DNA of 60,731 bases, taken from contig JAQBVV010000002.1 in the NCBI GenBank assembly GCA_027622905.1, forward strand, positions 1 to 60,731, written 5' to 3'. How positions within the stretch are numbered: position 1 is the first letter of the stretch; each line of letters opens with the position of its first letter. Shown in pieces: positions 4,169 through 60,731 of this stretch. The position numbers and the translations under genes are program-made. The notes beneath the pieces were generated by a model. It was given only the letters and a program-made list of their open reading frames with translations, was not told the origin of the DNA and made no database searches. Origin of the DNA: Acidobacteriota bacterium. GTDB lineage: Bacteria > Acidobacteriota > Vicinamibacteria > Vicinamibacterales > UBA2999.

Positions 4169-6261
4169 CAGGGCGTTGGTGCCTGGACACACGATGCACT
4201 CCGCATTGACTGGGTGCGCACTTCCTCCCTGCCGTCGACGATGATGCGATCGGTGGACTTGAAGAAGGTCATGGTTCGGCCGCTGGTCTCTCGGCACTCC
4301 TCGACGATGGTGACCGGAACGGTCGCGATGCCGCTCATCACGTAGCGCTCGTCTTCGGCGAAGTACGTCAGTCGATCGCCGGTGGCGAGACGGGTGCCCA
4401 GGCGCGCACGCACGTCGCCGTAGGCATCCAGTCGTTCCGCGCTGGAGGTGGCCTGGCCGAGCACCACGTCGATGCGCCGTGCACTGATATCTCCCTGCGG
4501 ACCGCTGAGCTGGGACAGTGCGGCGGCTGCGGGGATCGGGGTCGCGGCCGCCGGTGGGGCCGCGGGCGTCTGATAGACGAGCGTTCGCGCGTCGTCGTCA
4601 TACCGGATCTCGACGGCGCGCCCCACGGCCTCTCCAAGGTCGAGCACGATCGTTGACCTCGCAGTCCCGGAGGCGAGCAGGCCCCCACTCGCGCGATCGA
4701 GCACGATTCGATCGGCACGAATAGCTGTCGCCCCTTGCCAGAGCGTCGCGTCTCCCTCGTAGACCGCCGCGCCGACGTCTCCCTGGTAGTCGAGGCTGTC
4801 CGAATTGACGTTCACCGGTTCTCCGTCCTGTAGCAGGCCAGGCGGCCCACCTGTCTTGCCCGCGTGCAAGAAGAGCGTGGTCACCGAGCCGCTGGCGGTC
4901 ATGTGCCTTCCCTCCAGCGCCACGTCGATGGTGTCCGCGTCGATCTCAATCTGCTCGTCGACCACACGGGGCGCGCCTCCGGCGTCGAGTCCAGACAACC
5001 GAAGGGTTCCGTTGCGAGGGTCGTACTGCGCCTCGGCCCCCGATGCCCGAAGCTCGTCCTCCGCAAACTCGACGTTGCCGCGAAAGACCGCACCGGCGAC
5101 GACTGAGGCGTCGAGCGCGATCTGGAGCATGTCGGCGCGCACGATTCTCGGTGTCCCGGCGTTCCCGCCCTCGCGATACTCCACATCCTGGTCGAAGCGA
5201 GCTGCCGTCAAGTCCTTGCCCGGCTCCCCTGTTGCCTCGAATACGAGTGCAGTGATGCGTCGCGCGGGTGATCCAGGCACGCCTGGCAGTGCCACGCGAA
5301 CGTGTCCCTTCCCGTTCGCACGGGTCAGTGACCCATCTGGAGCGAACGAGAGATCGAGCTCATCGGCGAGGAACTCGCGTCCCGGGTCCCCATCCGCGGC
5401 ACGCATCAGGATGGCGCCATCTCCGGAGAGCAGCACGTGCTCAAGTGTCAGGCCGTCGTCCGTATAGTCCAGATCGATGTCGTCAGCAGTCATCGAGTGA
5501 AACGCTCCCTCGCCGGCGACGCTCGCGTGACCGCGCAGGTCGATCGCGGTGACGAGCGTGGCGCCTTCGGACATATACACGGTGCTGCGGTCGGCCTCGA
5601 GCACCTGGTTGCCGTGCAGCACGTGTACGTTTCCAGTGAGCGCGAGCGACTCGTCGGGGCGGTTGAGTATCGCGGTGTCCGACCGAAGCTGAGTCGCCGC
5701 GGCATCGCTGTCGTCGGTCACCGTGACGCGAGCCTCTTCCAGCAGCGACAGCACGTCGGTCTCCTGGTCGTAGGTCAGCCCGACACTGAAACCCGTCATT
5801 CTGCCCTTCGCGAACGAGACAGGGCCTGGCACGAGCACGGTCGCGTCGGCCTCGCGAAAGGTGGCACGATCGGCCAGCGCGACGAATCCATCGCTGGCAG
5901 AGAGTGACACGTCGCCGGTGAGCTCGATCTCGGCGTGCCCCTCGCCGGCGTGCGCCTCGCGCCCGGAGATGATGAAGTCCCGTCCGGCTCGCTGGCGGAC
6001 CGTGATCGTGACGCCAAGAAACTTCGCGGCGCCGTCGGCGTAGGTGAACTGCCGATCGGCTTCGATGACATAGTCCTGCGTGGCCGCCCTGAACTGCTGG
6101 AACGTCGCTCCGACGCTTTCGAGCACGGCGCTGGGATCGAGCGAGGGGGAACGACTCACAGGGTCCGTCGCCTGACGTTCGCGCATCGTCGTGTACACGG
6201 CGATCGCGACGACAATACCGACCGCCGCCACGCCGATGCGGGCGCGCTTCTGCCACGTCAT
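4168..6261 (-). CDS. Membrane-anchored OstA/LptA-like repeat protein (LptC/LptA-like)
   Basis: N-terminal TM anchor ([17 protein letters not shown]), then long beta-rich Asp/Gly/Thr-rich sequence. It sits immediately upstream of lptB-rpoN, where lptC/lptA normally lie. Domain call rests on context and composition only. Confidence 0.55.
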
Positions 6262-14615: not shown

Positions 14616-15845
14616 TCAGGCGGACGCAGCTGCCGCGCCGCCCATCGCGTCGGCGAGCCGTCGCACGCCCTCTTCGATGTGGTTCTCGGCGCAGGCGGAG
14701 AACGAGAGCCGAACCTGATTGTGGCCGGCACCGTTCACGTAGAATGCGCTCCCGACCACGAGCACGAGACGTCGTTCGAGCGCGCACGAGAGCAGCGCGA
14801 GGTCGTTGGTGCCCTCAGGTAGCGCGACCCACAGAAAGAAGCCCCCTCCAGGCGTCGACCATCGCAGGCCCGATCCGATGATCGTGCGGAGGGCGCTTTC
14901 CATGATGTCCCGCTTGTGCTGATAGTGCTGACGGAGCGCGGGCGCGATCTGCTCAAGCGTGCCTCGGCGCACCAGTTCGTGCACGAGGTGCTGGTCCAGG
15001 CTCCCCGTCATCAAATCGGCAGCCTGCTTGGCCGTCTCGAATCGGTCGGCAAGCATCGTGGGTGCGACCATCCAGCCCACCCGAAATCCCGGCGCCAGCG
15101 TTTTCGAGAAGCTGCTCAGATAAATGACCCGGTCGCCGTCGTCGAATGATCTGATCGGGCGTGTGTCCTCCTCGCCGGCGACGTCATCGAAGTACAGCGC
15201 CCCGTACGGATCATCCTCGATGATCAGGATGTCGCGACGGCGGGCCCACTCGATGAGGCGCGGTCGCTTCGCTCGGTCAAGCAGTACGCCACTCGGGTTC
15301 TGGAAGTTGGGCACCAGGTACAGCAGCTTGACGCGGCGGCCGGCGCGGCGATGCCGTAAGCAGACCTCATCCAGATCGTCGAGATTGATGCCGTCGTGGT
15401 CCTGCGCCACGCCGGCAAGACGTGCCTGGGCGTTGGTGAACGCCGAGATCGCCCCGGTGTAGGCCGGCAACTCAACCAGCACGACGTCACCGGGTGTCAC
15501 GAGCACCCGCGCGACGAGGTCAAGACCCTGCTGGGAACCGGAGGTGATCAGGAGTTCGTCCTGGCTGGCCGTGATCCCGCGGCCCGTCAGCAGTTGGCCG
15601 ATCGACTCAAGCAGCGGCCGATGGCCGCGCGTCGGGCCGTACTGCAGCACACGACCGTCGGTCTGCGCGAGCAGTTCTCGCATCACGTCTCGGATCGCGT
15701 CCCACGGAAACGCGTTCGGGTCGGGGTACCCCGCTGCGAACGAGACCATATCGGCGTTACTGGCGATGACGGTTCCCATCTGTCTGATCGCCGATTCACG
15801 CAGCAACCGCCCGGTCGGAGAAAGGAACTCGTCGAAGTTGGTCAT
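14616..15845 (-). CDS. PLP-dependent aminotransferase, class I/II (2-aminoadipate/aromatic transaminase-like)
   Basis: Start set at MTNFDEFLSP, with its ATG overlapping the TGA of the upstream membrane-protein gene. PLP-Lys region SFSKTLAPGFRVGW. The tracked 674-aa ORF's N-terminal 265 aa overlap the upstream gene and look like a GC artefact. Confidence 0.85.
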   Translation of the reverse strand: MTNFDEFLSPTGRLLRESAIRQMGTVIASNADMVSFAAGYPDPNAFPWDAIRDVMRELLAQTDGRVLQYGPTRGHRPLLESIGQLLTGRGITASQDELLITSGSQQGLDLVARVLVTPGDVVLVELPAYTGAISAFTNAQARLAGVAQDHDGINLDDLDEVCLRHRRAGRRVKLLYLVPNFQNPSGVLLDRAKRPRLIEWARRRDILIIEDDPYGALYFDDVAGEEDTRPIRSFDDGDRVIYLSSFSKTLAPGFRVGWMVAPTMLADRFETAKQAADLMTGSLDQHLVHELVRRGTLEQIAPALRQHYQHKRDIMESALRTIIGSGLRWSTPGGGFFLWVALPEGTNDLALLSCALERRLVLVVGSAFYVNGAGHNQVRLSFSACAENHIEEGVRRLADAMGGAAAASA

Positions 15846-24252: not shown

Positions 24253-26961
24253 ATGCACAGTCCAGCCACCTCCGTCACGCCCGCGATGCGTCAGTACCTC
24301 GACGCCAAACGTCAGCATCCTGACGCGATCGTCTTCTTCCGCATGGGTGATTTCTACGAGATGTTCTACGAGGACGCGCTGGTGGCAGCGCGCGCGCTCG
24401 ATCTCACGCTGACGTCGCGGTCCAAGGACGCAGGCGGCAAAGGCATTCCGATGTGCGGGCTACCGTTTCACGCGCTTGACGGTTACCTCGCAAAACTGGT
24501 CGCCAAGGGATTCCGGGTCGCGCTCTGCGAACAGGTCGAGGACCCCAAGAAGGCCAAGGGGCTTGTCAAGCGCGCGGTCGTGCGTGTGGTGTCACCAGGC
24601 ACCCTGACCGACGCCAGCTACCTGGAGGCTCGGGAGCCCGCGTACCTCATGGCGCTTGCCGAGGCGGCGGATGTCGTGGGGGCCGCATTGCTCGATCTCT
24701 CCACTGGGGAATTCACGGTTGCCGAGTACCCCGGCTCTGCCGGCCTTCAGGCGCTGGCAGACGAGATCGCGGTGTTGCGACCCCGTGAGATGGTGCTGCC
24801 GCGCGACTCAGCTATTTGCGCGAGACTGCCTGAGATCGAACGGCTTCAGATCCTGGTGTCGAGCGCAGAGCCGTGGGCCTTCGAGCCGCGAACGGCTCAC
24901 CAGGCGCTGCTGGACCAGTTCAAGGTGCAGAGCCTGGATGGGTTCGGCATCGGCGATCGTCCGGCAGCGATATTGGCCGGAGGGGGGTTGATCGGCCACT
25001 TGCGCGTCACGCAGCATGCCGATATCGATCACGTCCGCGCAATCTCCCTGAAGACCGACGCAGACTGTCTGATTGTCGATCCGGTCACGCTGAAGCATCT
25101 GGAAGTACTGAGCGGGAGCGAGGGGACGCTCAAGGGTTCGTTGCTGCACGCGATCGATCGGACCATGACCGCGATGGGTGGTCGGATGCTCCGCGCCTGG
25201 CTGCTTCGCCCGCTACGGGCGATCGAGCGGATACGCGATCGGCTTGATGCCGTCGAGGAACTGGCATTTCGTTCGACGGATCGGGCGAAGTTGCGGGACG
25301 CGTTGAAATCGGTGCACGACCTCGAGCGACTCGTCGCGCGGGCTGCTCTCGGTACCGCCGGGCCCCGCGACCTCGCGTCCCTTGGACAGTCGCTCCGCGA
25401 GGTGCCGCGGATGCATACGTTGCTGACCGAGGTGCAGGCGCCTCTGCTGAGCAGTCTGACCGCCGAACTGGATGACCTTGCCGACGTACGCGACCGCATC
25501 GAGCGATCGCTGATCGACGAGCCGCCAGTGTTTTCACGGGACGGTGGCTTTACCCGCGAGGGTGTCGACACCGAACTTGACGAGCTGAAGCAGATCAGTC
25601 GCTCGGGCCGGCAGGTGATCGTCGACATGGAAGAACGCGAGCGTGCACGTACGGGCATCAACTCGCTCAAGGTGCGCTTTAATCGTGTGTTCGGGTACTA
25701 CATCGAGATCTCGAAATCGAACCTGCACGCCACCCCTCCGGACTATCAACGCAAGCAGACGGTTGCCAGCGGCGAACGGTTTACGACGCCGGCGCTGAAG
25801 GAATACGAGGCGACAATCCTTGGAGCCGACGAGCGCATCCTCGAGCACGAGTTGCAGATATTCGAGGCCCTGCGCGCATACGTTGCGGGTGAGGCCGTAC
25901 GTGTGCAGGCGACGGCGCGCGTGTTGTCGACGCTCGACGTCCTCGCGGCGCTGGCCGAGACGGCTGCCGTCTCGAACTTTACCAAGCCCCACATGCACGA
26001 GAGTGACGAGTTCCTTGCGACTGACGCGCGGCATCCTGTCGTCGAGCAGCACGCCACGGACGCGTTCGTGCCCAACGATATAGACCTCAACGGATCGACG
26101 AGGCAACTGGTCGTGCTGACTGGTCCGAACATGGGCGGCAAGTCCACGTATCTCCGCCAGACCGCCCTGCTGCCGCTGCTCGCACAGATAGGGTCCTTTG
26201 TGCCGGCAAAGGACGCCAAGCTGCCGATCGTTGACCGCATCTTTGCGCGGGTGGGGGCGTCGGACAATATTGCGCGCGGTCAGTCGACGTTCATGGTCGA
26301 GATGCAGGAGACCGCCCATATCCTGCACACCGCGTCATCGCGGAGCCTCGTGGTCCTCGACGAAATCGGCCGCGGCACGGCGACGTTCGACGGCCTGAGC
26401 ATCGCGTGGGCGGTTGCTGAGTATCTGGCGACGCATGCCGATGTCCGCCCCAAGACGCTCTTCGCCACCCACTACCACGAGTTGACGGACCTGGCTGACG
26501 TGCTGCCTGGCGTGGTGAACGCGCACGTGGCCGCTCGTGAATGGAAGGACGACATCGTCTTTCTCAGAAAGATCATGCCGGGTCGATCGGACCGGAGCTA
26601 CGGCATCCAGGTTGCGCGGCTGGCGGGCTTGCCGGTGGCCGTCACGACACGCGCGAAAGAGATTCTGGGAGGGTTGGAGCGTGATGAGCTGTCTCGGGGT
26701 GGTCGCCCTACCCTGTCAGGGGCCGCCAGCGACCCCACGAGTAACCAACTGGGACTGTTTGCGAAGCCTGCCGATACTGCCCGCGAAGAGCTGGAGAAGT
26801 CGCCCGCGCCCCAGCCCGGCGATGGCGGTCCAGGTACCGCCCAACCGCGTCGCGATGAGCAGCTGGTCCGCAGGATCATGGCGATGGACTTGGACGACAC
26901 CACACCGCGACAGGCGCTTGAGCTACTCGGCGAGTTGAAGGACCTCGCGGAGGACTCGTGA
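24253..26961 (+). CDS. mutS: DNA mismatch repair protein MutS
   Basis: Mismatch-binding N-terminus TPAMRQYLDAKRQHPDAIVFFRMGDFYEMF, Walker A GPNMGGKST, STFMVEM, DEIGRGT. Start set at the ATG at 24253. Confidence 0.95.
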   Translation: MHSPATSVTPAMRQYLDAKRQHPDAIVFFRMGDFYEMFYEDALVAARALDLTLTSRSKDAGGKGIPMCGLPFHALDGYLAKLVAKGFRVALCEQVEDPKKAKGLVKRAVVRVVSPGTLTDASYLEAREPAYLMALAEAADVVGAALLDLSTGEFTVAEYPGSAGLQALADEIAVLRPREMVLPRDSAICARLPEIERLQILVSSAEPWAFEPRTAHQALLDQFKVQSLDGFGIGDRPAAILAGGGLIGHLRVTQHADIDHVRAISLKTDADCLIVDPVTLKHLEVLSGSEGTLKGSLLHAIDRTMTAMGGRMLRAWLLRPLRAIERIRDRLDAVEELAFRSTDRAKLRDALKSVHDLERLVARAALGTAGPRDLASLGQSLREVPRMHTLLTEVQAPLLSSLTAELDDLADVRDRIERSLIDEPPVFSRDGGFTREGVDTELDELKQISRSGRQVIVDMEERERARTGINSLKVRFNRVFGYYIEISKSNLHATPPDYQRKQTVASGERFTTPALKEYEATILGADERILEHELQIFEALRAYVAGEAVRVQATARVLSTLDVLAALAETAAVSNFTKPHMHESDEFLATDARHPVVEQHATDAFVPNDIDLNGSTRQLVVLTGPNMGGKSTYLRQTALLPLLAQIGSFVPAKDAKLPIVDRIFARVGASDNIARGQSTFMVEMQETAHILHTASSRSLVVLDEIGRGTATFDGLSIAWAVAEYLATHADVRPKTLFATHYHELTDLADVLPGVVNAHVAAREWKDDIVFLRKIMPGRSDRSYGIQVARLAGLPVAVTTRAKEILGGLERDELSRGGRPTLSGAASDPTSNQLGLFAKPADTAREELEKSPAPQPGDGGPGTAQPRRDEQLVRRIMAMDLDDTTPRQALELLGELKDLAEDS

Positions 26962-28511
26962 TGCCGCGACGTCCGGCACGCGCTCGAGTCTGGCTTGCGA
27001 TTGTCGTCGCCGCGACCACCGCGTCGTGTGTGGGGGCGGGCACACGCACCGACGCTGACATCGTGAGGGTGGCGATTCGGGCCTCGCCAGCGAGTTTTGA
27101 TCCCCGGATCGGCACCGACGAGCAGTCGCAGCGCGTGCATCAGCTGATCTATAGCCAGTTGATGACCGTCGACTCGGAGCTCCGCGTGGTGCCGGGACTC
27201 GCGGCTCGGCTTGATCATCCGGATCCGCTGACCTACATCGCGTATCTCCGAAGCGGTGTGCGTTTTCACGATGGACACGCCCTGACGGCGAGGGATGTGG
27301 TGTACACGTTCGAGAGCTTTCTCGACCCGGACTTCGTGTCGGCTCGCCGTGGGGCCTACCAGATGCTGGCGTCGGTCACGGCGCTCGACGACCATCGAGT
27401 GGAGTTCACACTGAAGGAGCCATTCGGGTCGTTTCCCGTTCAACTGGTGATGCCCGTCGTGCCGGACGGCGCGGGCGAGTCGTTACAGGCGTTTCCGATT
27501 GGCACGGGCCCGTATCGCTTCGTGCGGTACCTCGATGACGAACAGGTCGAGCTCTCAGCGTTTGAAGGCTACTGGGACGGACTTCCACAGAACGCCGGGG
27601 TCACGCTCCGCATTATCCCGGACGACACGATGCGCGGACTGGAATTGCGAAAGGGGTCGGCGGACATCGCCATCAACGACGTCACGCCGGACATCGCTCT
27701 TCAGTTGCAGCGAGATGGGATGACCGTGGTCGAAGGCGCAGGCGTGGACTACGCGTACATCGGTCTGAACATGAAGGATGCGGTGCTGCGCGATAAGCGC
27801 GTCCGGCATGCGATCGGCTACGCCATCGATCGCCAGTCGATCATCGAACATCTTCGACGCGGACTTGCCACGCCGAGCGACGGAGTGTTGTCGCCACTGG
27901 CGTGGGCGTCTGAATCGGATGTCCATCACTTCGACTACGACGTGTCCCGGGCGAAGCAGCTCCTGGATGACGCAGGGTACCCCGACCCTGACGGCGACGG
28001 TCCTCTACCACGGCTGCGTCTGTCGCTCAAGACCTCCGCCGACGAGTTCTACCGCCTGCAGGCCGCGGTGATTCAGGAGAACCTGCGTCTCGTGGGGATC
28101 GCGCTCGACGTGCGGTCGTACGAGTTTGCGACGTTCTATGCCGACGTGCTGGAAGGGAACGTGCAGATGTACACGCTACAGTGGGTCGGCGTGACGGACC
28201 CCGATATGCTCAGGCGGCTGTTCCATTCCGCTCAGGTGCCTCCTGTCGGATTCAATCGCATTCACTACAGCAATCCGGAAGTGGATCATCTGATCGACAT
28301 GGCGACGGCCGCCACGACGGACGCGGACAGGCAGCGATACTACAGCGCCGTGCAGAGAGCGGTGGCCGAAGACGCGCCGTATATCAGCCTGTGGCACCGC
28401 ACCAACGTTGCCGTGATGGGCCCACATGTGACGGGTCTGCGCCTGTCACCGCAGGCAGACTTTCTGGCGCTGAAAGATGTGCGCAAGGCGCGAGCAGGAT
28501 CCGGCGGCTAA
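26958..28511 (+). CDS. ABC transporter substrate-binding protein, family 5 (peptide/nickel type)
   Basis: Lipoprotein-like N-terminus (VVAATTASC) and overall DppA/OppA-like pattern (DPR.., YRFV.., GYPDPDGDG). Its stop TAA lies in the left flank of E1 copy A. Confidence 0.85.
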   Translation: MMPRRPARARVWLAIVVAATTASCVGAGTRTDADIVRVAIRASPASFDPRIGTDEQSQRVHQLIYSQLMTVDSELRVVPGLAARLDHPDPLTYIAYLRSGVRFHDGHALTARDVVYTFESFLDPDFVSARRGAYQMLASVTALDDHRVEFTLKEPFGSFPVQLVMPVVPDGAGESLQAFPIGTGPYRFVRYLDDEQVELSAFEGYWDGLPQNAGVTLRIIPDDTMRGLELRKGSADIAINDVTPDIALQLQRDGMTVVEGAGVDYAYIGLNMKDAVLRDKRVRHAIGYAIDRQSIIEHLRRGLATPSDGVLSPLAWASESDVHHFDYDVSRAKQLLDDAGYPDPDGDGPLPRLRLSLKTSADEFYRLQAAVIQENLRLVGIALDVRSYEFATFYADVLEGNVQMYTLQWVGVTDPDMLRRLFHSAQVPPVGFNRIHYSNPEVDHLIDMATAATTDADRQRYYSAVQRAVAEDAPYISLWHRTNVAVMGPHVTGLRLSPQADFLALKDVRKARAGSGG

Positions 28512-28670
28512 GGACCCGGGCAGGAATAACTTGCTCGTCGTGGCCACCGATGCATCCCACCGGGCTGCGTTGCTCTTCGCTTGCATACGCCGAGTATGCG
28601 CGCTCTTCGCGCCTTGCCGGGTGGGCGCCTCGACGCCCACGATGATCAACTTATTCCTGCCCGGGTCCTA
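28510..28670 (+). mobile_element. E1 palindromic MITE, copy A (coordinates include flanking dinucleotides)
   Basis: 157-bp element from GGACCCGGGCAGGAATAA to TTATTCCTGCCCGGGTCC. The TIR is 18 bp perfect and about 32 bp with 3 mismatches. No ORF. Identical to copy B over the 157 bp. Flanks are AA (left) and TA (right). Confidence 0.85.
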
Positions 28671-28759
28671 AGTGATCCGCTCGGCCCCGTGGACGTCCTA
28701 CGCGCCGGATGCTCCAACCATGGGGGATGTGCGATCCTGCCGACATGATCGGAGACCCC

Positions 28760-28993
28760 ATGGCCATCGTGCTTCTCGCAGGCGTGGCGCTCGGGGTGTG
28801 GCTGTGGTGGCGTCGCCAGGGCGGCGCACCCCGGCACGCCCGGCAAGCCGAAACCCGGCTTCGCCGCATCTGCCTTGGCGATGACGGCCAGGTGGAGCGG
28901 CTCATCGGTGGCGAGATGGCTCGGGCTCCGGGGATCTCTCGCGCCGAGGCCGCCAGTCGCGCAGTGGAGCGGTACCGGCGCGATAATCGCTGA
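28760..28993 (+). CDS. Small single-pass membrane protein, unknown function
   Basis: N-terminal TM (MAIVLLAGVALGVWLWW) then a charged helical tail. No motif recognised; coding status uncertain. Confidence 0.35.
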   Translation: MAIVLLAGVALGVWLWWRRQGGAPRHARQAETRLRRICLGDDGQVERLIGGEMARAPGISRAEAASRAVERYRRDNR

Positions 28994-29160
28994 GCGTCGA
29001 GGGCGCCCCGCAGGCATCGGAGCAGGTATCATCGTCGCTCCGCGACGGGACGATCGCGATTCAGCGCAGACTCAGCTGGCAGCCGCCACGCCGGGAGGGC
29101 AACGGCGATCGTCCGGGCGCCTGACGCCAGTCAACTTTTCAGGGAGCGACACCGAACACC

Positions 29161-29955
29161 ATGGATTTACAACTCAAGGGCAAGACCGCACTGGTTACCG
29201 GCTCGACGGCCGGCATCGGGCTGGCGATCGCCAGCGCACTCGCCGGGGAAGGCGCGCGCGTCATCGTGAACGGCCGCACGTCGAAACGCGTGGATCAGGC
29301 GATGGCGGCCATCGGCGCTCGGCACCCCGGGGCCAGTCTCGAGGCGTTGGCGCTGGATCTGTCCACCGCGTTGGGCGCGGCTGACGCGGTCGCGCGCTTT
29401 TCGGACGTGGACGTGCTGGTGAACAACCTCGGCATCTTCGAGCCGAAGCCGTTCGAGGACATTCCTGATGCGGACTGGCTGCGCTTCTTCGAGACCAACG
29501 TGATGAGCGGCGTGCGGTTGAGCCGCGCGTACCTGCCGAGGATGCGCGCGAAGGACTGGGGCCGCATCGTCTTCATTTCCAGCGAGTCGGGTCTGCACAT
29601 CCCGGCTGAGATGGTGCACTACGGCGTCACCAAGACCGCGCAGATCGCCGTGGCGCGAGGGATCGCCGAGACGTGCGCGGGAACCGGCGTCACGTGCAAT
29701 GCCGTACTGCCTGGGCCAACAGCCTCGGAAGGCGTCAAGGACTTCGTCGGTTCGATGGCGAAGCAGAGCGGCAGGAGCGAGACCGACGTGGAAGCCGACT
29801 TCTTCCTGAACGTCCGGCCGACGTCCCTGCTCAAGCGCTTCGCCACCACGGACGAAGTCGCGGCGATGGTGGCCTTCGTGTGCAGTCCGCTGGCGTCGGC
29901 GACCAACGGCGCCGCCGTACGGGTGGACGGTGGCGTGGTGAAGTCGCCGTTCTAG
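29161..29955 (+). CDS. SDR-family oxidoreductase
   Basis: Cofactor motif TGSTAGIG, NNLG, catalytic Y-x3-K (YGVTK). Confidence 0.85.
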   Translation: MDLQLKGKTALVTGSTAGIGLAIASALAGEGARVIVNGRTSKRVDQAMAAIGARHPGASLEALALDLSTALGAADAVARFSDVDVLVNNLGIFEPKPFEDIPDADWLRFFETNVMSGVRLSRAYLPRMRAKDWGRIVFISSESGLHIPAEMVHYGVTKTAQIAVARGIAETCAGTGVTCNAVLPGPTASEGVKDFVGSMAKQSGRSETDVEADFFLNVRPTSLLKRFATTDEVAAMVAFVCSPLASATNGAAVRVDGGVVKSPF

Positions 29956-30167
29956 CTGACACCTGGAGGGTTCTTGACACCAGGCTCGGGACTGGGCTAC
30001 GTTGCGCGATATACGTGTGGCAGAGTCCAGGCCGAGGTCCCTGGGGCAAAGAAGCGGGCGCTGCGCGACGACATCAATCTTCCCCTGCGGATCGGCGATT
30101 AGGGCGACTCGAAGGCGGGCGCCGTGAGCACGCTGAGGCACAACCACGAGATCGAGGAGCTCTGACT

Positions 30168-31025
30168 ATGAAGCGATTTTTCATCGGCAGCATGTGTGCG
30201 GTCGTCGGGGCCGCGTGGCTCGCAGCGCCGCCAGTCGCCGCTCAGGGCCAGGGTGCGCAGGCCGCCGCGGTGGAGACACCGCGGGACGCAGCAGGGCATC
30301 CGGTGCTCGGCGGGATCTGGGCCAACACGCTGGACCGCACGAACACGGTACCCGAGAGCTACGCGAGCAGGCTTCGAGGCCGGCTGAGTGGCGAATACAC
30401 GACGCAACGCGACAGGACGGTGAACTTCGAGCGCGATTCCGGGATCGGGCAGCGCGTGCTGCCGTACGACGAGAAGCCGTTCTACAAGCCGCAGTACTGG
30501 GAGCGGGTGAAGTTCAACGACGTGCACGGGCACAACATCTTGGCGCCCGATCCGACGTTCCAGTGCATGCCAGCGGGCGTGCCCCGGATCGGCTTGCCGT
30601 CCGAGATCGTGCAGACCGATTCGACCCTCTACTTTTTGTACGACCGGCATCAGCGGCGGATCTACATCGACGGTCGCCCTCATCCTCCAGTGGAGGCGTG
30701 GCTTGGCACGTGGTTTGGCCACTCCATCGGTCACTGGGAAGGCGACACCCTGGTTGTATCCACGGTCGACTTCAATGGCGCGGAGTGGATGGGCTGGCCA
30801 GGGTATTTCACGAGTCCGGACAAGACCGTCATCGAGCGCATTACCCGGGTGGGCGACAGGCTGACGCTTGAAGCGACGGTCACCGACGAGAGTCTGCTGC
30901 TGCAGCCGTGGACGACGGTCGTGGACACGGCACAGTTCAACAACACCCCCAGGGGCGAACTTGAAGAGCCGCTTCCGTGTCTGGAGCGGGATATCGAAAG
31001 CATGGCCACGCGGGAACGTGGCTAG
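30168..31025 (+). CDS. Secreted hypothetical protein 'X'
   Basis: Signal peptide (MKRFFIGSMCAVVGAAWLAAPPVAAQ), conserved-looking core (GHWEGDTLVVSTVDF). A truncated paralogous copy lies at 31964-32224. Confidence 0.6.
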   Translation: MKRFFIGSMCAVVGAAWLAAPPVAAQGQGAQAAAVETPRDAAGHPVLGGIWANTLDRTNTVPESYASRLRGRLSGEYTTQRDRTVNFERDSGIGQRVLPYDEKPFYKPQYWERVKFNDVHGHNILAPDPTFQCMPAGVPRIGLPSEIVQTDSTLYFLYDRHQRRIYIDGRPHPPVEAWLGTWFGHSIGHWEGDTLVVSTVDFNGAEWMGWPGYFTSPDKTVIERITRVGDRLTLEATVTDESLLLQPWTTVVDTAQFNNTPRGELEEPLPCLERDIESMATRERG

Positions 31026-31074
31026 TGTGAGCGTGCGAAAACGAGCGTTCGAAGCAGGGAGTCACAGAGTGCAG

Positions 31075-31962
31075 ATGTACGCACGCACGAGTAGCCGCGC
31101 GGGGATGTGGACCGGTCTGGCGGTGGCGGCGGCGATGGCCTTGGTGGCGGTCGCCGTGCCGGCCGTCCATGCGCAGACCCCCAGTATCGAAGACGTCCAC
31201 TACGACATGGCCGACGCGCTGGGGATGCTTCGACACCACGGCAATTCGCCGCCGGAAGAAGATCTGATGATGTCGGTCGAGATCTACGCCAGCGGGAGCA
31301 TGGCCGAGATCACTCCCACGACCGTGGGCCCGCTCGAGGCGCTCGAGAGCTTCTACGCCGAGATTGGGTACGACTTTCCGGGCATGCGCGTGGACATGAC
31401 GCGAACGTCTGGAGCACGCGAGATCCACGTGGTGAGCGGGTTGTTCGCGTGGAATGAGATCGGCGAGCGCGGTGGCGGACTCGTCGAGGGCTATGGCAGC
31501 GCTGAGCCCGCGATGGAGGCCGTGGCCGGTCGGCTTCTTCAGCTCTGGATGACGCCGCACGGCGCCGTCAAGATGGCGCGGGCCGCAGGTGATCGCGCGT
31601 CGGTGTCGATGGAAGGGGGCGCGCTTGTTGTGACGTTTCCGCTGGTCAATGCGCCGATGACGCGCTCGACCAACCTGACGGCCGGCCCTCTCGAGGGCAC
31701 CGAGATGAAGGTGACGCTCGATGACCGCCGCCGACCGGCGAAGGTGGAGGTGACGTTCGGAGGTCGGCAGTACGTCTCGACCTATGCTGGCTACGCCGAC
31801 TTGAACGATAGCGACTATCAGGCGGACATCCTGCTGCCAGCCAACGTCATGCAGACGATAGACGGCCAGACCGCCTACGAGCTGACGATCGAGCGCACGA
31901 ACACCTACAACCCGTACGTGATCATGCCGGTCCCGGACTCGGTGCGGGCAGCCGCGCAGTAG
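31075..31962 (+). CDS. Secreted hypothetical protein 'Y'
   Basis: Signal peptide (GLAVAAAMALVAVAVPAVHAQ). No recognisable motif. Confidence 0.55.
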   Translation: MYARTSSRAGMWTGLAVAAAMALVAVAVPAVHAQTPSIEDVHYDMADALGMLRHHGNSPPEEDLMMSVEIYASGSMAEITPTTVGPLEALESFYAEIGYDFPGMRVDMTRTSGAREIHVVSGLFAWNEIGERGGGLVEGYGSAEPAMEAVAGRLLQLWMTPHGAVKMARAAGDRASVSMEGGALVVTFPLVNAPMTRSTNLTAGPLEGTEMKVTLDDRRRPAKVEVTFGGRQYVSTYAGYADLNDSDYQADILLPANVMQTIDGQTAYELTIERTNTYNPYVIMPVPDSVRAAAQ

Positions 31963-31963
31963 C

Positions 31964-32224
31964 GTGGACTTCAACGGTCAGAAATGGATGGGCTAGCCAG
32001 GGTATTTCACGAGTCCGGACAGAACCGTCATCGAACGCATTACCCGGGTGGGCAACACGCTCACGCTTGAAGCGACGATCACCGACGAGAGCCTGCTCCT
32101 CCAGCCATGGTCGAAGGTCTTTGACACCGCGGAGTTCAACGACACCCCGCAAGGTGAACTTGAAGAGCCGCTGTCGTGCCTGGAACGAGACATCGAGAGC
32201 ATGGCCACGCGGGAGCGCGGTTAG
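31964..32224 (+). pseudogene. 3' fragment of a paralogue of protein X, with internal TAG
   Basis: Translates to VDFNGQKWMG*PGYFTSPDRTVIERITRVGNTLTLEATITDESLLLQPWSKVFDTAEFNDTPQGELEEPLSCLERDIESMATRERG. It is collinear with the last ~86 aa of X. It has no start, an internal stop at 31994-31996, and a terminal TAG supplied at the E1 copy B junction. Confidence 0.85.
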
Positions 32225-32382
32225 GACCCGGGCAGGAATAACTTGCTCGTCGTGGCCACCGATGCATCCCACCGGGCTGCGTTGCTCTTCGCTTGCATAC
32301 GCCGAGTATGCGCGCTCTTCGCGCCTTGCCGGGTGGGCGCCTCGACGCCCACGATGATCAACTTATTCCTGCCCGGGTCCTA
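32222..32382 (+). mobile_element. E1 palindromic MITE, copy B (coordinates include flanking TA)
   Basis: Identical to copy A over 157 bp, same orientation, flanked by TA on both sides. Confidence 0.85.
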
Positions 32383-32392
32383 AGGGCTCGGA

Positions 32393-33235: not shown

Positions 33236-33312
<77 letters not shown>

Positions 33313-54928: not shown

Positions 54929-55750
54929 ATGGTCGCTGATACCCCTTCCCTGTCCTCGCCAAACGAGTACGATGACTTTGCGGATATTTACCAGGTCTGG
55001 ACGGACACGGCTGCGTCAGCGCAGGCCAACCTGGAGTTTTATCTGGACTTGTACCGGGAGGCCGTGGGTCCCGTGGTCGAGCTCGGCGTGGGTGACGGCC
55101 GTATCGCAGTGCCGGCGGCGTGCCGGGGTCAGGATGTCATCGGCGTCGATCTGTCACCCGCCATGCTTGAGCGCTGCCGCGCCCGAGCAATGGCCGCCGG
55201 CGTGCTCGACCGTCTCGCATTCGTGTGTGAGGATTTTCGCCGTTTTCAGCTCGACGTCCCCGCCGGCCTGATTGCCCTGCCGTACCACAGTCTCGGACAT
55301 GTGCTGTCGCTTGAGGACAAGCGGTCTGCGTTGGCGCATGTGTTCTCCCAGCTGGAGCCCGGTGGCCGCTTCGTGTTCGATGACTTCTACGTGACACCGG
55401 CTCTTGTGGATCAGATGCGGAAGGTTCAGCTCCGTGCCACCTACCGATCGTCGGGCGACATCGACACGCTGCTGTGGGTGACATCGCTGGTGGATGAGGC
55501 GTCGCAAGCGATGACTGTCGTGACCTGGGAGGACTTCCTCGACACTGATGGCGTGTTAATGCGCAGGCGGTACCGCCGGCTGCATCTCAGCTGGCTCGAT
55601 CCCTCGCAGGCGCGGAGCCTGCTCACAGAGGCCGGATTCGTCATTGACGCGTGCTACGGGGGCTTCGATCGCACCCCGTTCTCGGAGGCGACAGCCCGAG
55701 AGCAGATCTGGATCGCCAGGAGGCCTGGCGCGGATGTCACAGCTGCCTAG
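54929..55750 (+). CDS. Class I SAM-dependent methyltransferase
   Basis: Motif I VVELGVGDGRIAV, post-I DLSPAML, motif EPGGRFVF. Confidence 0.8.
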   Translation: MVADTPSLSSPNEYDDFADIYQVWTDTAASAQANLEFYLDLYREAVGPVVELGVGDGRIAVPAACRGQDVIGVDLSPAMLERCRARAMAAGVLDRLAFVCEDFRRFQLDVPAGLIALPYHSLGHVLSLEDKRSALAHVFSQLEPGGRFVFDDFYVTPALVDQMRKVQLRATYRSSGDIDTLLWVTSLVDEASQAMTVVTWEDFLDTDGVLMRRRYRRLHLSWLDPSQARSLLTEAGFVIDACYGGFDRTPFSEATAREQIWIARRPGADVTAA

Positions 55751-55956
55751 TGGCGTGTCTCGGCCAAAGGAGGACCACCTCCCGGGCGGGGCATCCCGGG
55801 GGGCGGCGTTGCTCCTCTCTCGAATACCCCCAGTATTCTCGGTCGTCGCGCCTGGCCCGCCGGCGCGGATTTCGCAGGCGTGCCACGTCCGAGCGAACTC
55901 CGCGCGAGGCGCCGCGCTCCGGGATCTGGTGCTTCTTCAGCCGAGACGCGCCACTA
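55748..55956 (+). mobile_element. E2 palindromic element (205 bp plus flanking TA)
   Basis: Arms GTGGCGTGTCTCGGC... and ...GCCGAGACGCGCCAC match 14/15, with further imperfect pairing inward. Flanked by TA/TA within CTAG. Contains the 78-nt core (55791-55868) shared with E1 and E3. No ORF. Confidence 0.75.
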
Positions 55957-56041
55957 GCAGACTCTCGATGTGCTCGCCTCGGCGGGAGTGGACCGTCTGC
56001 GGCGCCTCGGCCTCGGACGGTCTACTAGGCAAGGAGACGAC

Positions 56042-56401
56042 ATGATTGGCACGACAGGGCTGCAGGGCCTGCGGGTGGAGTGTATCGTCGGCATCTACCC
56101 GCACGAGCGTCAGATTCGGCAATCCGTAGTCATGGACATCGCACTGGACTACGACTTCGCGGCGGCGGCGGCTTCCGACGCCATTGCCGAGGCTGTTGAC
56201 TACGATGTTGTCGCTGGGGGGATCACCGAACTCGTGCAAGACCGGGCGTTCCAGTTGATTGAAACGATGGCCGAAGAGGTCGCCGAGATGCTGCTCGGCC
56301 GGTTACCGCAGGTGCGAAGGATTCAGCTGGAGGTTCGCAAGCCGGACGCCGTGCCGGCCGCGACCAGTGCTTTCGTACGCGTGGAGCGCGCACGGTCGTG
56401 A
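56042..56401 (+). CDS. folB: Dihydroneopterin aldolase
   Basis: 119 aa with RVECIVGIYPHERQIRQSVVMDIAL and later DYD..., typical of FolB. SD AAGGAG lies 6 nt upstream. Confidence 0.8.
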   Translation: MIGTTGLQGLRVECIVGIYPHERQIRQSVVMDIALDYDFAAAAASDAIAEAVDYDVVAGGITELVQDRAFQLIETMAEEVAEMLLGRLPQVRRIQLEVRKPDAVPAATSAFVRVERARS

Positions 56402-57165
56402 GTGATCGAGAACGGATGCCGTCGCGCGGTCCGCAGGGTGCAGACACCACCAATCGGGTGGCCGTGGTGACCGGCGGTGCCCGGCGCCTGGGACGGCATC
56501 TGTGCCTCGCGCTGTCCGCGCGCGGGTATGACGTCGTCATTCTGTACAGGACCTCCCGCGACGATGCGCGGTCGCTGGAGCGCGAGATCGCCGCGGCCGG
56601 GAGACGCGTTCGGTCGTTCGCGGTTGACGTTGGCGTCGAGGCGCAGGTCGCAGACGTCTTCGCTCAGATCGCGAGTGAGGGAGGGCGTGTCGACGTGCTG
56701 ATCAACAACGTTGGCAACTACAACCCGCAGCCGGTGGCCCGCCTGACACCCGCGACGTGGGATGCCACCCTGGCGACGAACCTGTCCGGCGCCTTCTACT
56801 GCTGCTTCCATGCCCTCCCCTTGATGCCGGATGGGGGCCACATCGTGAATATCGGGATGGCGGGCCTCGAGGGTATTCGCGCCAACGTGCGCGGCACCGA
56901 CTACTACGTCAGCAAGACGGGGCTACTGGTGTTGACGAGGGCGCTGGCCGTCGCCCACGCCGAGCGACGCATCCGGGTCAACATGGTGTCTCCGGGACAG
57001 CTCGACAACTCGATCGACCTTCCACCGCCTGACAGGATCGGGCACACGGTGCCTCTCGGGCGGGCCGGGACGTTGCAGGATGTGGCGCACGCCGTCGAGT
57101 ATCTGCTCGATGCCGGGTACGTGACCGGCGCCAACATCGATGTCGCCGGCGGATACCGGCTGTAG
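56398..57165 (+). CDS. SDR-family oxidoreductase (possibly pteridine/dihydromonapterin reductase-like, by context)
   Basis: Cofactor motif VTGGARRLG, NNVG, catalytic Y-x3-K (YYVSK). The GTG start overlaps the folB TGA. Confidence 0.8.
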   Translation: MSDRERMPSRGPQGADTTNRVAVVTGGARRLGRHLCLALSARGYDVVILYRTSRDDARSLEREIAAAGRRVRSFAVDVGVEAQVADVFAQIASEGGRVDVLINNVGNYNPQPVARLTPATWDATLATNLSGAFYCCFHALPLMPDGGHIVNIGMAGLEGIRANVRGTDYYVSKTGLLVLTRALAVAHAERRIRVNMVSPGQLDNSIDLPPPDRIGHTVPLGRAGTLQDVAHAVEYLLDAGYVTGANIDVAGGYRL

Positions 57166-57326
57166 TCCCCTGGAACCGTGATTCGTCACATAATTCCTGA
57201 GCGGGGCATCCCGACTGGCGGCGTTGCTCCTTCCTCGAATATGGCCAATATTCTCGGTCGTCGCGCCTTGCCATCCGGGCGCCACGCTGCAGGACTTAGG
57301 CAACACATCACGGTTCCAGGGGACTA
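57163..57326 (+). mobile_element. E3 palindromic element (160 bp plus flanking TA)
   Basis: Perfect 18-bp TIR GTCCCCTGGAACCGTGAT / ATCACGGTTCCAGGGGAC, flanked by TA/TA. Contains the shared 78-nt core (57206-57283). No ORF. Confidence 0.8.
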
Positions 57327-57330
57327 GCCC

Positions 57331-58569
57331 GTGATGGAGGCGCGTCGGCCTACGAACAGCGACGCATCCGCCCGGGATCCGGTGGTAATGACCAGTGCCT
57401 CCGCGCTCGTGCCGCTGTGGGATCGAGCCGCCGAGTGGAGGCGTCGGCTCGCGATGATCAGGGAGGCCCGCTCCTTCCTGTATCTGTCCACGTTCTATGT
57501 CGAGCACGATGCTTACGGCGTTGAGGTGCTGGCAGAACTGGTCTCGGCCCAGCGTCGTGGGGTCGCCGTCAATCTTTTGATCGACGGGTTCGGGCAGCGC
57601 CTTGGCGGCGTGCTGATGTCCAGCCAGCAACGGGTGGCGCTGGCAGGGACACTGGAAGACCTACGGCGCGCCGGTGCGGTCGTCACCGTGTACAGTCCGC
57701 AGCGGCATCTGCAGCGGTGGCTCGGTGGCGGACAGCACGTCAAGATCCAGGTGTCGGACGCCGGCGAGGCGATCTTCGGCAGCAGCAATCTGAGCAAGTC
57801 TTCATTCGAGGGCTGGAATGAGTACGCTGTTGCGGTGCGCGGCCCCGTGGCACATGCGCTCCTGAGCAGCTATCGTGACATCGGCGGCGTTGTGCATGCG
57901 TCACATCTCCATCACCTGCGGAGCGGGGTGCCTGCTGTTCCCACTGCCGAGATCGAGTCGTCCGAGGTGGCCAAGACGATGATGCTCGAGTACTGGTGCT
58001 GCAATCCGAACGCGTATCAGGGGGGCTTGGGCCCGATCGGCTGGCGTGGTCGGAACCTGGTGACCGACGGACTGATCGAGCGGATCGGTACCGCCCGGCG
58101 CTCGATCCTGATCACAAGCTTCTATTTCAAACCGGTCGAGCCACTGCTCGTGGCACTTCTCGGCGCGGCGCGCCGGGGGGTGCGCGTCGAGGTGCATCAT
58201 TCACACCGGGAAGCGCTGCCAGCCACTGATCTCGCCTGGATCGCCGCGGCCGCCTGCTATGGGCGCCTGCTGGAGGCGGGGATCTGCGTGTTCGAGAATC
58301 GGCGCGGCGAGCATTCCAAGATCGTGCTCGTCGATGACGAATGGACGGCATTTGGTAGCTATAACTTCGAACACGCGGCGCACGATCGGTTGGCCGAAGC
58401 CATGCTGGTGAGCACGGACCCAGAGGCCACGCAGCCTGCCGCTGCGATCTTTGCTGGGTTGCGGCGGCATCCCGACAACGTGCGTGTCACGGAGCAGGCG
58501 CTACGTGACCTACCCATTCGACTGAAGGCGCGCAGATGGTTCCTCGGGAGGTTCAGGCGATGGATGTGA
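57331..58569 (+). CDS. Phospholipase D-superfamily protein with two HKD motifs (ClsB-like cardiolipin synthase or phospholipase)
   Basis: HVKIQVSDAGEAIFGSSNL and HSKIVLVDDEWTAFGSYNF both fit H-x-K-x4-D-x6-GS-x-N. About 410 aa, no TM. Start is the GTG at 57331 or the ATG at 57334. Confidence 0.85.
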   Translation: MMEARRPTNSDASARDPVVMTSASALVPLWDRAAEWRRRLAMIREARSFLYLSTFYVEHDAYGVEVLAELVSAQRRGVAVNLLIDGFGQRLGGVLMSSQQRVALAGTLEDLRRAGAVVTVYSPQRHLQRWLGGGQHVKIQVSDAGEAIFGSSNLSKSSFEGWNEYAVAVRGPVAHALLSSYRDIGGVVHASHLHHLRSGVPAVPTAEIESSEVAKTMMLEYWCCNPNAYQGGLGPIGWRGRNLVTDGLIERIGTARRSILITSFYFKPVEPLLVALLGAARRGVRVEVHHSHREALPATDLAWIAAAACYGRLLEAGICVFENRRGEHSKIVLVDDEWTAFGSYNFEHAAHDRLAEAMLVSTDPEATQPAAAIFAGLRRHPDNVRVTEQALRDLPIRLKARRWFLGRFRRWM

Positions 58570-59254: not shown

Positions 59255-60448
59255 ATGGCTGTGCCGGAGCCCTGGTTCAGAGCAGTGGCTCATCTTGGTC
59301 GGGGTAGCGTATGGGCTGTGAGTGACCGAGCATGGTGGGGCGTGTCCGTTCTGGTCACGATGGCGCTGGTCGCCGCGATCGCCGTCCTGTGGCCTCGCGC
59401 GGTGGGCGACTACGTCCCGCATCCAGGGCAGTTGACCAGTCAGACTGCCGTCGAGGAGTTCCTGTCGCTGCGGCCAGCCGGACCGAGTCGGGTCCTCATT
59501 CCAACGGGCATCTTCGTGCAATCGCTGCATTTCGTCACGGCCAGCGACGTCAATATCACGGGCTACATCTGACAGAAGTACAGCAACGCCGTGCCGGAGG
59601 AGGTCACGCGCGGCTTCACGCTACCAGAACAGGTGTCCTCAGGCGATACCGTGATCGAGGAGGCGTACCGCCTTGCCTATGCGGACGGGGTGGTGATTGG
59701 CTGGTACTTCGACGTGACGGTGCGTCAGCCCTTCGACTACTCCCGCTATCCGCTGGATCGGCATGATGTGTGGCTACGCATGTGGCACGCGGATTTCGAT
59801 CGTGACGTCGTTCTCGTGCCGGATCTGGAGGCGTATGACTCGACCGAGCAGAGCGAGGCGTTTGGGCACGACCCGGACATCGTGCCTGGCGGATGGAGGA
59901 TCAATGAGACGCTCTTCGAGTACAAGGTCTTCAACTACGACACGGACTTTGGAATTCCAGGCTATGTAGGGCAGACTGGGTTTCCCGATCTCTACTTCAC
60001 TGTTGTGGTCAGTCGGGGGTTTGTCGGCGCGTTCGTGACCACGCTGGTGCCACTCCTGGTCGTGGCCGGACTCTTGTTTGCGATGCTCATGATCACGACC
60101 GCGGAGCCGACCCGCGCGGCGGCGTTCGACTTCAACACCGCCGGGGTGATTGCCACGGTGTCGGCGCTGTTCTTCGTCGTTTTGCTCCCGCACATTGAGC
60201 TACGCCAGCTGGTGACCGGCACGGAAATGGTCTATCTCGAACAGTTCTATTTCACGCTCTACCTGACCATCCTGGCGGTCACGATCAACGTCTACGTGTT
60301 CACCACGGGCGGCGCGAGTCGTCTCGTGACGTTCGTGCGATACCGGGATAACCTGATCGCGAAGGTCGCGTTCTGGCCCGTGATCCTCGCGGTGCTCGCA
60401 CTGATCACGCTGGGCTATTTCGGCGGCGATTCACCGCGTATTCAATAG
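59255..60448 (+). pseudogene. Pentameric ligand-gated ion channel (pLGIC/Cys-loop-like) homologue interrupted by in-frame TGA at 59570-59572
   Basis: N-terminal anchor, beta-rich ectodomain with ...IFVQSLHFVTASDVNITGYI[TGA]QKY... and the loop YPLDRHDVWLRMW (compare FPFD.Q of pLGICs). A pre-M1 Arg is followed by four TMs (FVGAFVTTLVPLLVVAGLLF, AGVIATVSALFFVVLL, FYFTLYLTILAVTINVYVF, VAFWPVILAVLALITLGYF). The two tracked ORFs are in the same frame. Confidence 0.5.
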
Positions 60449-60487: not shown

Positions 60488-60546
60488 AGCGCTTTTCGAG
60501 AAGGCCTGGCCCCTGCGAGAAGCCCCAGACCGAAACGAAAAGCGCT
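60488..60546. repeat. Long imperfect hairpin downstream of the channel gene
   Basis: AGCGCTTTTCG (60488-60498) is perfectly complementary to CGAAAAGCGCT (60536-60546), with partially pairing sequence between them. Confidence 0.4.
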
Positions 60547-60673
60547 CCAGGCAGCGCTGTCTCGAGTGTGGCCCTTCCCTGCTTGCCCGGGAGTTCGTGA
60601 GGCGCTCTGTTGGCAGAGGACGGCGTGTGCAGACGACGGCGTTTCCAGGGGACGAGGTGTCCAGGGGCTCGCT

Positions 60674-60731
60674 TAGGACCCGGGCAGGAATAAGTTGATC
60701 ATCGTGGGCGTCGAGGCGCCCACCCGGCAAG
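60674..60731 (-). mobile_element. Partial E1 MITE at contig end, inverted relative to copies A and B
   Basis: TA then GGACCCGGGCAGGAATAAGTTGATCATCGTGGGCGTCGAGGCGCCCACCCGGCAAG equals the reverse complement of the right arm of copies A and B. It is truncated by the contig end. Confidence 0.85.

Follow-up and report, generated by a model that had tools for sequence, protein, structure and literature searches.

Palindromic repeats with unrelated termini in a Vicinamibacterales contig share a conserved core whose fold is selected on one strand

We analyzed a stretch of 60,731 nucleotides from an Acidobacteriota genome of the order Vicinamibacterales (assembly GCA_027622905.1, contig JAQBVV010000002.1, positions 1 to 60,731 of the forward strand), hereafter called the window. 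It carries short palindromic elements of three types, E1, E2 and E3, for which a first-pass annotation made from the sequence alone had claimed a shared 78-nt core. The elements and their parts are as follows.

28509..28671, + strand: E1 copy A; 157-bp body at 28512-28668 (GGACCC...GGGTCC), core at 28552-28629
32221..32383, + strand: E1 copy B, identical to copy A; body at 32224-32380, core at 32264-32341, flanks TTA and TAA
55748..55956, + strand: E2; 205-bp body at 55750-55954 (GTGGCG...CGCCAC), flanked by TA/TA inside CTAG...CTAG
55791..55868, + strand: core of E2; stem 55822-55827, loop 55828-55832, stem 55833-55838
57163..57326, + strand: E3; 160-bp body at 57165-57324 (GTCCCC...GGGGAC), TA/TA flanks, core at 57206-57283
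60673..60731, - strand (inverted): fifth copy, of E1 type; left flank TTA at 60673-60675, the window ending before the core

The four full copies are co-oriented, and each has the stop codon of a + strand open reading frame (ORF) as its left flank. E1 copy A is flanked by TAA at 28509-28511, which is the stop codon of an SBP_bac_5 gene, and by TAA at 28669-28671, while the left flank of copy B ends an ORF of 58 amino acids without a Pfam match. The TAG at 55748-55750 on the left of E2 is the stop codon of a methyltransferase gene, and the TAG at 57163-57165 on the left of E3 is that of an SDR gene. The best relatives of this SDR are from Vicinamibacterales (Acidobacteriota), and the gene order FtsH-DACNV-methyltransferase-FolB-SDR-PLD is conserved.

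The pattern GCATCCCNNNNGGCNGCGTTGCTC matched the window four times, always on the + strand (at 28552, 32264, 55791 and 57206), compared with 0.06 matches in shuffles. A covariance model gave the four cores 75-84 bits and everything else in the window 15 bits or less. The cores are 70.5% (E1/E2), 73.1% (E1/E3) and 78.2% (E2/E3) identical, whereas identity in the 43 nt on either side of them is 30-49%, close to the chance level at 64% G+C. The terminal inverted repeats of the window elements are 18-20 nt long and perfect or near-perfect, and those of the three element types (GGACCCGGGCAGGAATAA, GTGGCGTGTCTCGGC and GTCCCCTGGAACCGTGAT) are unrelated. Every core forms the centre of an imperfect palindrome that spans the whole element, 157-205 bp; the right arm of E2 has an extra side hairpin of ~45 nt. 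The central stems and loops are GCATAC/GTATGC with GCCGA in E1, GAATAC/GTATTC with CCCCA in E2, and GAATAT/ATATTC with GGCCA in E3. Thus, the shared core, the unrelated termini, and the stems, loops and outer pairings all read as the first-pass annotation gave them. No coding frame is conserved among the elements. An ATG frame of E1 crosses the core, but E3 lacks this ATG and the stems covary, so that coding for a small peptide was rejected. The identity of E1 copies A and B indicates recent activity.

For the covariation test, 41 non-identical cores from many taxa were aligned without gaps, and the stated structure was compared with 500 shuffles. Paired cells amounted to 86.5%, as against 67.6% in the shuffles, and the covariation score was 0.429 as against 0.130, a value reached by none of the 500 shuffles. 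When the partners were slid by 1-3 columns, the score was 0.10 or lower. Double changes were found in 16 of the 23 core pairs. These results bear out the earlier proposal that the structure is kept by compensatory change. On the strand described in the first-pass annotation (hereafter the first-read strand), the core of the family reads GGC-N-GC-GTT-GC-TC-N-TC-xx-TY-(5-6-bp stem, ~5-nt loop)-YC-x'x'-TC-N'-TC-GC-GC-CTT-GCC. The + strand of the E2 core reads GGC-N-GC-GTT-GC-TC-N-TC-xx-TY-(stem/loop/stem)-YC-x'x'-TC-N'-TC-GC-GC-CTG-GCC, with CTG where the consensus has CTT. The helix is irregular: it comprises a GGC:GCC clamp, two 3-nt bulges in staggered positions, and three 2x2 mismatch loops with freely covarying Watson-Crick pairs between them, and its tip is an apical stem, rich in A+T, that bears a ~5-nt loop. 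The lone pair N:N' (24:54), which lies between conserved TC/TC mismatches, is CG in 19, GC in 12, UA in 5 and AU in 4 cores. The apical ATA/TAT is kept in 75-80% of the copies, and the A+T content is 70.5% at the apex compared with 17.3% in the outer stem. In the subfamily of the window, a second conserved loop (GATGCATCCC / GGGCGCCTC) lies farther out.

A scan with Rfam 15, judged by gathering thresholds and E-values, detected only a tRNA in the window and left the motif unmatched in 18 loci, the best sub-threshold hits being noise; the motif thus matches no Rfam family, in line with the earlier statement that it was not a recognized one. XerCD/dif-like arms in the apical stem and a K-turn around the bulges were looked for by eye and rejected, the motifs being unmatched. 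A sigma-70 promoter spanning TTGCTC...AATATT was also considered, and none was detected.

The two strands of the elements differ in how well they fold. We counted isolated mismatches in the outer stems of 86 distinct elements on the first-read strand and found 133 A·C/C·A against 26 G·T/T·G mismatches (p = 1.7e-18; 53 elements against 5). Pyrimidine-pyrimidine mismatches likewise outnumbered purine-purine ones (152 vs 47). On the complementary strand these mismatches become G·U/G·T wobbles and purine-purine pairs, and tandem G·A/A·G pairs take the place of the three TC/TC-type loops. With RNA parameters, the complement was the more stable strand in 77 of the 86 elements, the mean difference being 10 kcal/mol, and with DNA parameters it was so in 78 of the 86; for E3 the values were -99.4 kcal/mol for the complement and -88.5 kcal/mol for the first-read strand, and for E1 copy A the better-folding strand is the - strand. 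Each of the two strands folds much better than shuffled sequence does (z = -9.7 to -11.2). Strand-symmetric mutation cannot produce such a bias, and we conclude that selection maintains the fold of one strand, the one that reads GGCAAGGCGCGA-n-GA...GA-n'-GAGCAACGC (hereafter the GA strand); for four of the copies in the window this is the - strand. The first-pass annotation had therefore described the complement of the strand under selection.

The same data bear on the idea that the core is a double-stranded binding site of a dimeric protein, or a palindrome maintained by template-switch correction of quasipalindromes without any structural function. Inverted repeats can mimic covariation if both arms match one protein, and the retention of ATA/TAT at the apex resembles a sequence-specific site. 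However, the stems vary freely through all four Watson-Crick pairs, and the conserved letters of the loops form identical pyrimidine-rich strings on the two arms of a single strand, an arrangement without dyad symmetry. The strand-specific excess of A·C mismatches is impossible under symmetric duplex recognition or symmetric mutation, and quasipalindrome correction would erase mismatched loops that are conserved across phyla. We therefore consider this explanation very improbable.

The family was scanned for in contigs representing one genome per species with the pattern GCGTTGCTC-N27-35-TCGCGCCTNGCC, which yielded at least 120 loci, nearly all of which display the full anatomy of the element. 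With model R1, the first 100 of these loci gave 123 sites at E<0.01, including 20 sites outside the search pattern that have the same conserved letters (GCGTTGCtC...TC.TC-GCgC-CTTGcc). Among the matches listed, the hosts are Acidobacteriota, Binatia, Nitrospirales, Gemmatimonadota, Verrucomicrobiota, Elusimicrobia, Bacteroidota, Myxococcota, Desulfobacterota, Planctomycetota, Actinomycetota, Fibrobacteria and Methylomirabilota, together with Alphaproteobacteria (Novosphingobium, and Rhizobium from a separate plasmid search), Betaproteobacteria (Ottowia, Variovorax, Polaromonas, Thiobacillus) and Gammaproteobacteria (Pseudomonas, Nevskia, Intestinirhabdus). The host range of the family is well over a dozen bacterial phyla. 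Carriers include a Vicinamibacterales contig (CBDFLL010000005.1) and P. fluorescens LR782234.1. About 20 of the matches listed lie within ~150 nt of a contig end, which is the pattern of assembly-breaking repeats. Most elements are 157-177 bp long, and ~163-166 bp is the length in most taxa. A 264-bp version is common to three Pseudomonas species with 84-92% identity at unrelated loci; these copies were considered as orthologues in which compensatory change might be followed in situ and were set aside, the loci being different. A variant in Gemmatimonadota (Longimicrobiales; L056, L015, L041, L068, L078) lacks the GGC clamp and has TCGCTCT ahead of the core, and in L056 (4716-4940) two copies of it stand in tandem, 171 nt apart.

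Comparison with relatives defined the unit of insertion. In an orthologous locus (L124), the sequence reads CTGTAG|GCGATCGTGATGG and the SDR stop codon is 9 nt from the next gene, whereas the window reads CTG-TAG-(160 bp)-TAG-CCCGTGATGG. The empty and filled sites indicate that the inserted unit is the whole palindrome with TA(G) on both sides. The SDR-stop site, which is that of E3, is empty in L124-L126, and three orthologous loci have no insertion at the E2 site. In L122, the SDR stop codon carries an element of another subfamily in inverted orientation (4857-4929, 57.4 bits), and in L121 it carries a derivative of ~100 nt (4768-4873) that lacks the core; this short copy has retained some of the inner region and so has the look of a deletion. 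Three lineages (the window, L122 and L121) thus have independent insertions at one SDR stop TAG, and turnover is fast: the relatives compared at these sites are 84-86% identical in protein. A further copy lies in the mutM-rpmG spacer of Intestinirhabdus alba, where all E. coli genomes are empty. Among 47 well-bounded elements, the flanks were CTAG/CTAG in 10, TA/TA in 8, TAA/TAA in 4 and TTA/TTA in 3, and duplicated TA, TAA, TTA or CTAG flanks were found in 26. Elements with GG...CC ends tend to be bordered by TAA or TTA at either end, and those with GTG...CAC ends lie within C-TA-G. The insertion target is TA, TAA or TAG, often the stop codon of a gene.

These observations also bear on the suggestion in the first-pass annotation that the hairpin is a terminator, an attenuator or a processing signal, that is, an RNA device at gene 3' ends (which might also stabilize mRNA) that is delivered by MITEs (short for miniature inverted-repeat transposable elements) and kept by selection on the host. 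The start of all four full window copies on stop codons of + strand ORFs, in the same orientation, is what such a device would show; both strands fold well beyond shuffles, as given above, and an RNase E site through which ERIC alters the decay of mRNA has been reported in Yersinia (PMC10969869). However, the fifth window copy is inverted, and neither a U-tract nor any terminator-like or promoter-like site was detected in 55600-57450. Across 92 elements, with crude gene calls based on third-position G+C, the orientation relative to adjacent gene ends was unbiased (24 sense, 21 antisense, 7 both), and within co-directional gene pairs the mRNA corresponded to the first-read strand in 14 cases and to the other strand in 8. 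E2 and E3 lie inside a co-directional cluster of housekeeping genes that needs read-through, and the selected fold is antisense to these genes. A site may be empty, filled or reverse-filled in the close relatives described above. The overlap with stop codons follows from a TA/TAA/TAG target in a genome of 64% G+C. The random orientation, the lack of a U-tract and the quick turnover of sites point to a selfish MITE-like element rather than a host terminator, and we regard a host-selected device as quite unlikely.

The elements have most of the features of MITEs: they are shorter than 500 bp, lack coding capacity, and have terminal repeats and duplicated flanks with filled and empty sites, which agrees with the earlier description of MITE-like vehicles. 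We are highly confident that E1, E2 and E3 belong, as three diverged subfamilies, to a single, very widespread superfamily of MITE-like foldback elements that are non-autonomous and palindromic over their whole length.

Several features of the window beside these insertions deserve mention. At E2 (55700-56010), the C-terminus of the methyltransferase and the N-terminus of FolB are unlike those in all three orthologous loci, and the insertion seems to have reshaped both adjoining gene ends. E1 copies A and B, in direct orientation and with TAA/TAA as outer flanks, bracket ~3.55 kb (28509-32383) that contains an SDR gene (29161-29955), an ORF at ~31.07-31.96 kb resembling a secreted protein, and small ORFs. 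Orthologous loci (L138, contig of P0121) lack the bracketed segment, and there the SBP_bac_5 stop codon is 7-26 nt from the convergent TPR stop codon. The segment is a candidate for a MITE-flanked composite transposon or for a circle that integrated into a resident copy; Pfam detected no transposase within it. A tRNA-Arg (CCT) gene (33236-33312, - strand) follows closely downstream of the TPR gene next to E1 copy B. Short inverted repeats outside the family are present at 60488-60546, 25689-25728 and 15713-15742, the first of which is just past an ORF ending at 60448 and just ahead of the fifth element.

Architectural variants were found in other genomes. Two-arm elements of 280-330 bp occur in gamma- and alphaproteobacteria, Verrucomicrobiota, Acidobacteriota and Nitrospirales. 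They consist of an outer terminal stem, an often degenerate arm with the core in reverse, a tiny CCC-GNA-GGG hairpin and an arm with the core in forward orientation, and in 10 of 10 cases the two cores are on opposite strands ~30 nt apart. CCC-GNA-GGG is near-constant on the strand that has the better-conserved arm in pyrimidine-loop form (L083, L026, L109, L086, L077, L040, L106), so that two-arm elements have a fixed polarity. A Nitrospirales locus (L062; OY820905.2, 1104001-1112000) contains at least five copies of the family within 8 kb together with a different MITE family that has CCTAGAAACNGCAGTTGG ends, and one core-bearing element is nested at the centre of the latter. In Burkholderiales (L013, L036, L054), the ends of the other MITE family (GAAACCGCAGTTGACC) are fused to the core hairpin.

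The first-pass annotation had proposed that the core is a module carried by several vehicles. In its strict form, the core hairpin would be a travelling module that enters unrelated palindromic MITEs by nested insertion or recombination, the composites then being moved by the transposase of the outer ends. The nested element of L062 and the Burkholderiales composites give this idea partial support, and the different termini, the two flank classes (TA and TAA/TTA), the occurrence of one-arm and of two-arm, Y-shaped elements with opposite-strand cores, and an element with ERIC-type ends and the core (L099, described below) are in accord with it. On the other hand, the boundary of the core is not sharp, conservation tapering through covarying stems, and the second conserved loop of the window's subfamily lies outside the core. 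The total length is conserved at ~163-166 bp, and no vehicle without the core was seen, the short copy in L121 having the look of a deletion. The sharing of one core by elements with different ends therefore stands, but a discrete module that moves from vehicle to vehicle appears unlikely.

For the foldback MITE-like superfamily, we searched for a mobilizing partner. ORF clustering over the at least 120 loci linked only generic ABC ATPases, SDRs and LysR proteins to the element. A search for full-length insertion sequences (IS) as inverted-repeat pairs 0.7-3.5 kb apart gave only MITE pairs. When metagenomes were scanned with the 18-nt E1 end, eight matches were obtained, with no MITE among them. 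Four of the matches lie in ORF remnants of NF041680/IS701-like transposases (L132-L134 and L136, JGI metagenome contigs) at profile positions 324-370 of 439. These were considered as traces of an autonomous partner and rejected as chance matches, since they lie within the ORF and away from its end. We propose that DDE transposases acting in trans would move the elements by reading the variable termini; these may be IS5/PIF-like enzymes for GG...CC ends with TAA/TTA flanks, and IS630- or IS427-like enzymes for GTG...CAC ends at TA in CTAG. Such assignments by flank type rest on general traits of the transposase families. Ends of the GG(G/C)CCTGT type resemble those of PIF/IS5, which serves as a lead only.

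What, then, would the core do? It is more conserved than the termini, it is conserved across phyla and it is selected on one strand, which suggests that it is selected for the spread of the element itself, in cis and in single-stranded form. The core would accordingly be kept by selection on propagation of the element and not on host genes, and it would most likely act in cis as a single-stranded structure, either in a transcript of the GA strand or as an extruded or replicative DNA hairpin. In this form it may bring together the ends of the 160-bp element, the A+T-rich tip nucleating the extrusion of a cruciform, and it may also, or instead, recruit an architectural or RNA-binding factor common to all bacteria. 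That the core is a cis-acting single-strand structure needed for spread is a reasoned guess, which we offer tentatively. A fuller version, which we find rather doubtful, is that the core is a pan-bacterial, strand-specific cis-acting structure, namely a rod on the GA strand in which three tandem G·A motifs are combined with two AAN bulges and a tip rich in A+T, and that it is read as an RNA or DNA hairpin by a universal factor or by the mobilizing enzyme, with the termini as interchangeable vehicles and the core as the invariant.

Several points weigh against our overall interpretation. An autonomous IS with matching ends was found neither in the window nor in the at least 120 loci nor in the metagenome scan, so that mobilization by DDE transposases rests on the terminal repeats, the duplicated flanks and general knowledge of the transposase families. 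Under a strict rule, clean duplicated flanks are absent in a quarter to half of the elements. DDE transposition uses double-stranded DNA and by itself leaves a strand-specific fold unexplained. The same strand is favoured by RNA and by DNA parameters, which do not separate RNA from single-stranded DNA as the selected form, and the central hairpin of two-arm elements is C(UNCG)G, an RNA-like motif, on the GA strand and C(GNA)G, a DNA-like one, on the other. Finally, the scan pattern with which the genome copies were ascertained fixes 20 bases of the core, and the sequences are related, so that the shuffle tests overstate their independence.

Comparison with known repeats identified ERIC as the closest family. 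In a 162-bp element with a canonical core from an uncultured gammaproteobacterium (L099), both termini are identical to those of ERIC at 18-19 of 25 positions with an offset of 0, whereas the next best of 9,024 comparisons gave 14 of 25. These ERIC-type termini, TATAC.CGT.ATA..., make ERIC the nearest known relative. Like the present family, ERIC (also IRU or RU-1) is a multi-copy imperfect palindrome over its whole length that lies in intergenic transcribed DNA, is polymorphic for presence and absence, and has no known transposase. In the E. coli ERIC consensus (PMC2759123), the central hairpin is preceded by GGC-T-GCGTT-(C)GCTCA and followed by CTT-GCC, and the pyrimidine-rich strings on both arms are collinear with the family core, although the ERIC core is shortened and diverged. 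Models R1 and R2 aligned with ERIC over its full length, but the scores were low, 9.2 and 11.7 bits respectively (E 0.007-0.02 in small searches), and the window copies have no direct similarity to the 127-bp ERIC consensus. ERIC, of 127 bp, has been reported only from Enterobacteriaceae and Vibrionaceae (PMC10969869), whereas the window elements are 157-205 bp long, G+C-rich and from a Vicinamibacterales host. ERIC is probably a shortened branch of the family.

Other known repeats share parts of this picture. Tourist (PIF/Harbinger, TAA/TTA) and Stowaway (Tc1/mariner, TA) MITEs of plants and the bacterial IS5/IS630 families have the same two flank types and strong whole-length hairpin potential, but Tourist and Stowaway conserve their ends, whereas the present family conserves its centre and has no cognate transposase that we could find. 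Correia duplicates TA on insertion. Correia/NEMIS of Neisseria and YPAL/RU-2 of Yersinia are likewise short foldback MITE-like elements that lie beside or overlap genes and give long-hairpin transcripts, and YPAL (~167-168 bp) is near the length of the family (163-166 bp). However, no resemblance in sequence to the family was apparent, the YPAL sequence (PMC2759123) lacks the core motif, and each of these repeats is confined to one genus, their centres not being conserved across taxa. Integron attC sites resemble the family in that structure is kept over sequence, one strand folds, unpaired bases give polarity, and the sites lie just after ORFs. The family differs from them in lacking GTTRRRY/RYYYAAC boxes in the sequences read (ends GGACCC, GTGGCG, GTCCCC), an integrase and a cassette array, and its duplicated TA/TAA flanks and terminal repeats point to transposition. 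REP/REPIN-RAYT repeats are also intergenic hairpins in Pseudomonas. REPs are 20-40 bp with GTAG or CGTC tags (PMC3733652), whereas the family has ~160-bp units, no such tag at the ends read and no recurrent neighbouring gene. The two-arm form of the P. fluorescens group (~264-320 bp; L008, L040, L072) is near R200 (320 bp) and R26 (352 bp), and its ~100-nt arm near R178 (101 bp), in each case by size only. The beta-proteobacterial BRE repeat was examined as a candidate and rejected, the sequences being unrelated.

A 2011 review (Delihas) described MITE cores as being without similarity between genera, and a 2024 review lists no cross-phylum MITE. Our search of the literature by sequence string and keyword found no description of the cross-phylum family or of the core. 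The first-pass annotation had allowed that the core might prove to be the inside of a known MITE family; it is indeed the internal part of one MITE superfamily, with ERIC as the closest described relative, but this superfamily is apparently an undescribed pan-bacterial variant of the ERIC-type foldback MITE. Taken as a whole, an ERIC-related foldback MITE-like superfamily with a cis-acting core is, in our judgment, the probable explanation, though one held with reserve.

ERIC has been used for decades in strain typing, while its mobility and conservation have gone unexplained. A relative of ERIC in bacteria of many phyla, from soil, from water and from hosts, with a far better conserved, strand-specific core backed by covariation, provides an alignment deep enough to define the functional nucleotides, and the fold of the GA strand is a concrete, testable hypothesis, with culturable hosts at hand in the Pseudomonas fluorescens group, Novosphingobium, Rhizobium, Ottowia and Intestinirhabdus. 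The family also affects the annotation of metagenome-assembled genomes: it causes assembly breaks, overlaps stop codons, lies in the interior of operons and may bracket movable segments. If the core is indeed a pan-bacterial cis-acting structure, this would explain the spread of ERIC-type repeats.

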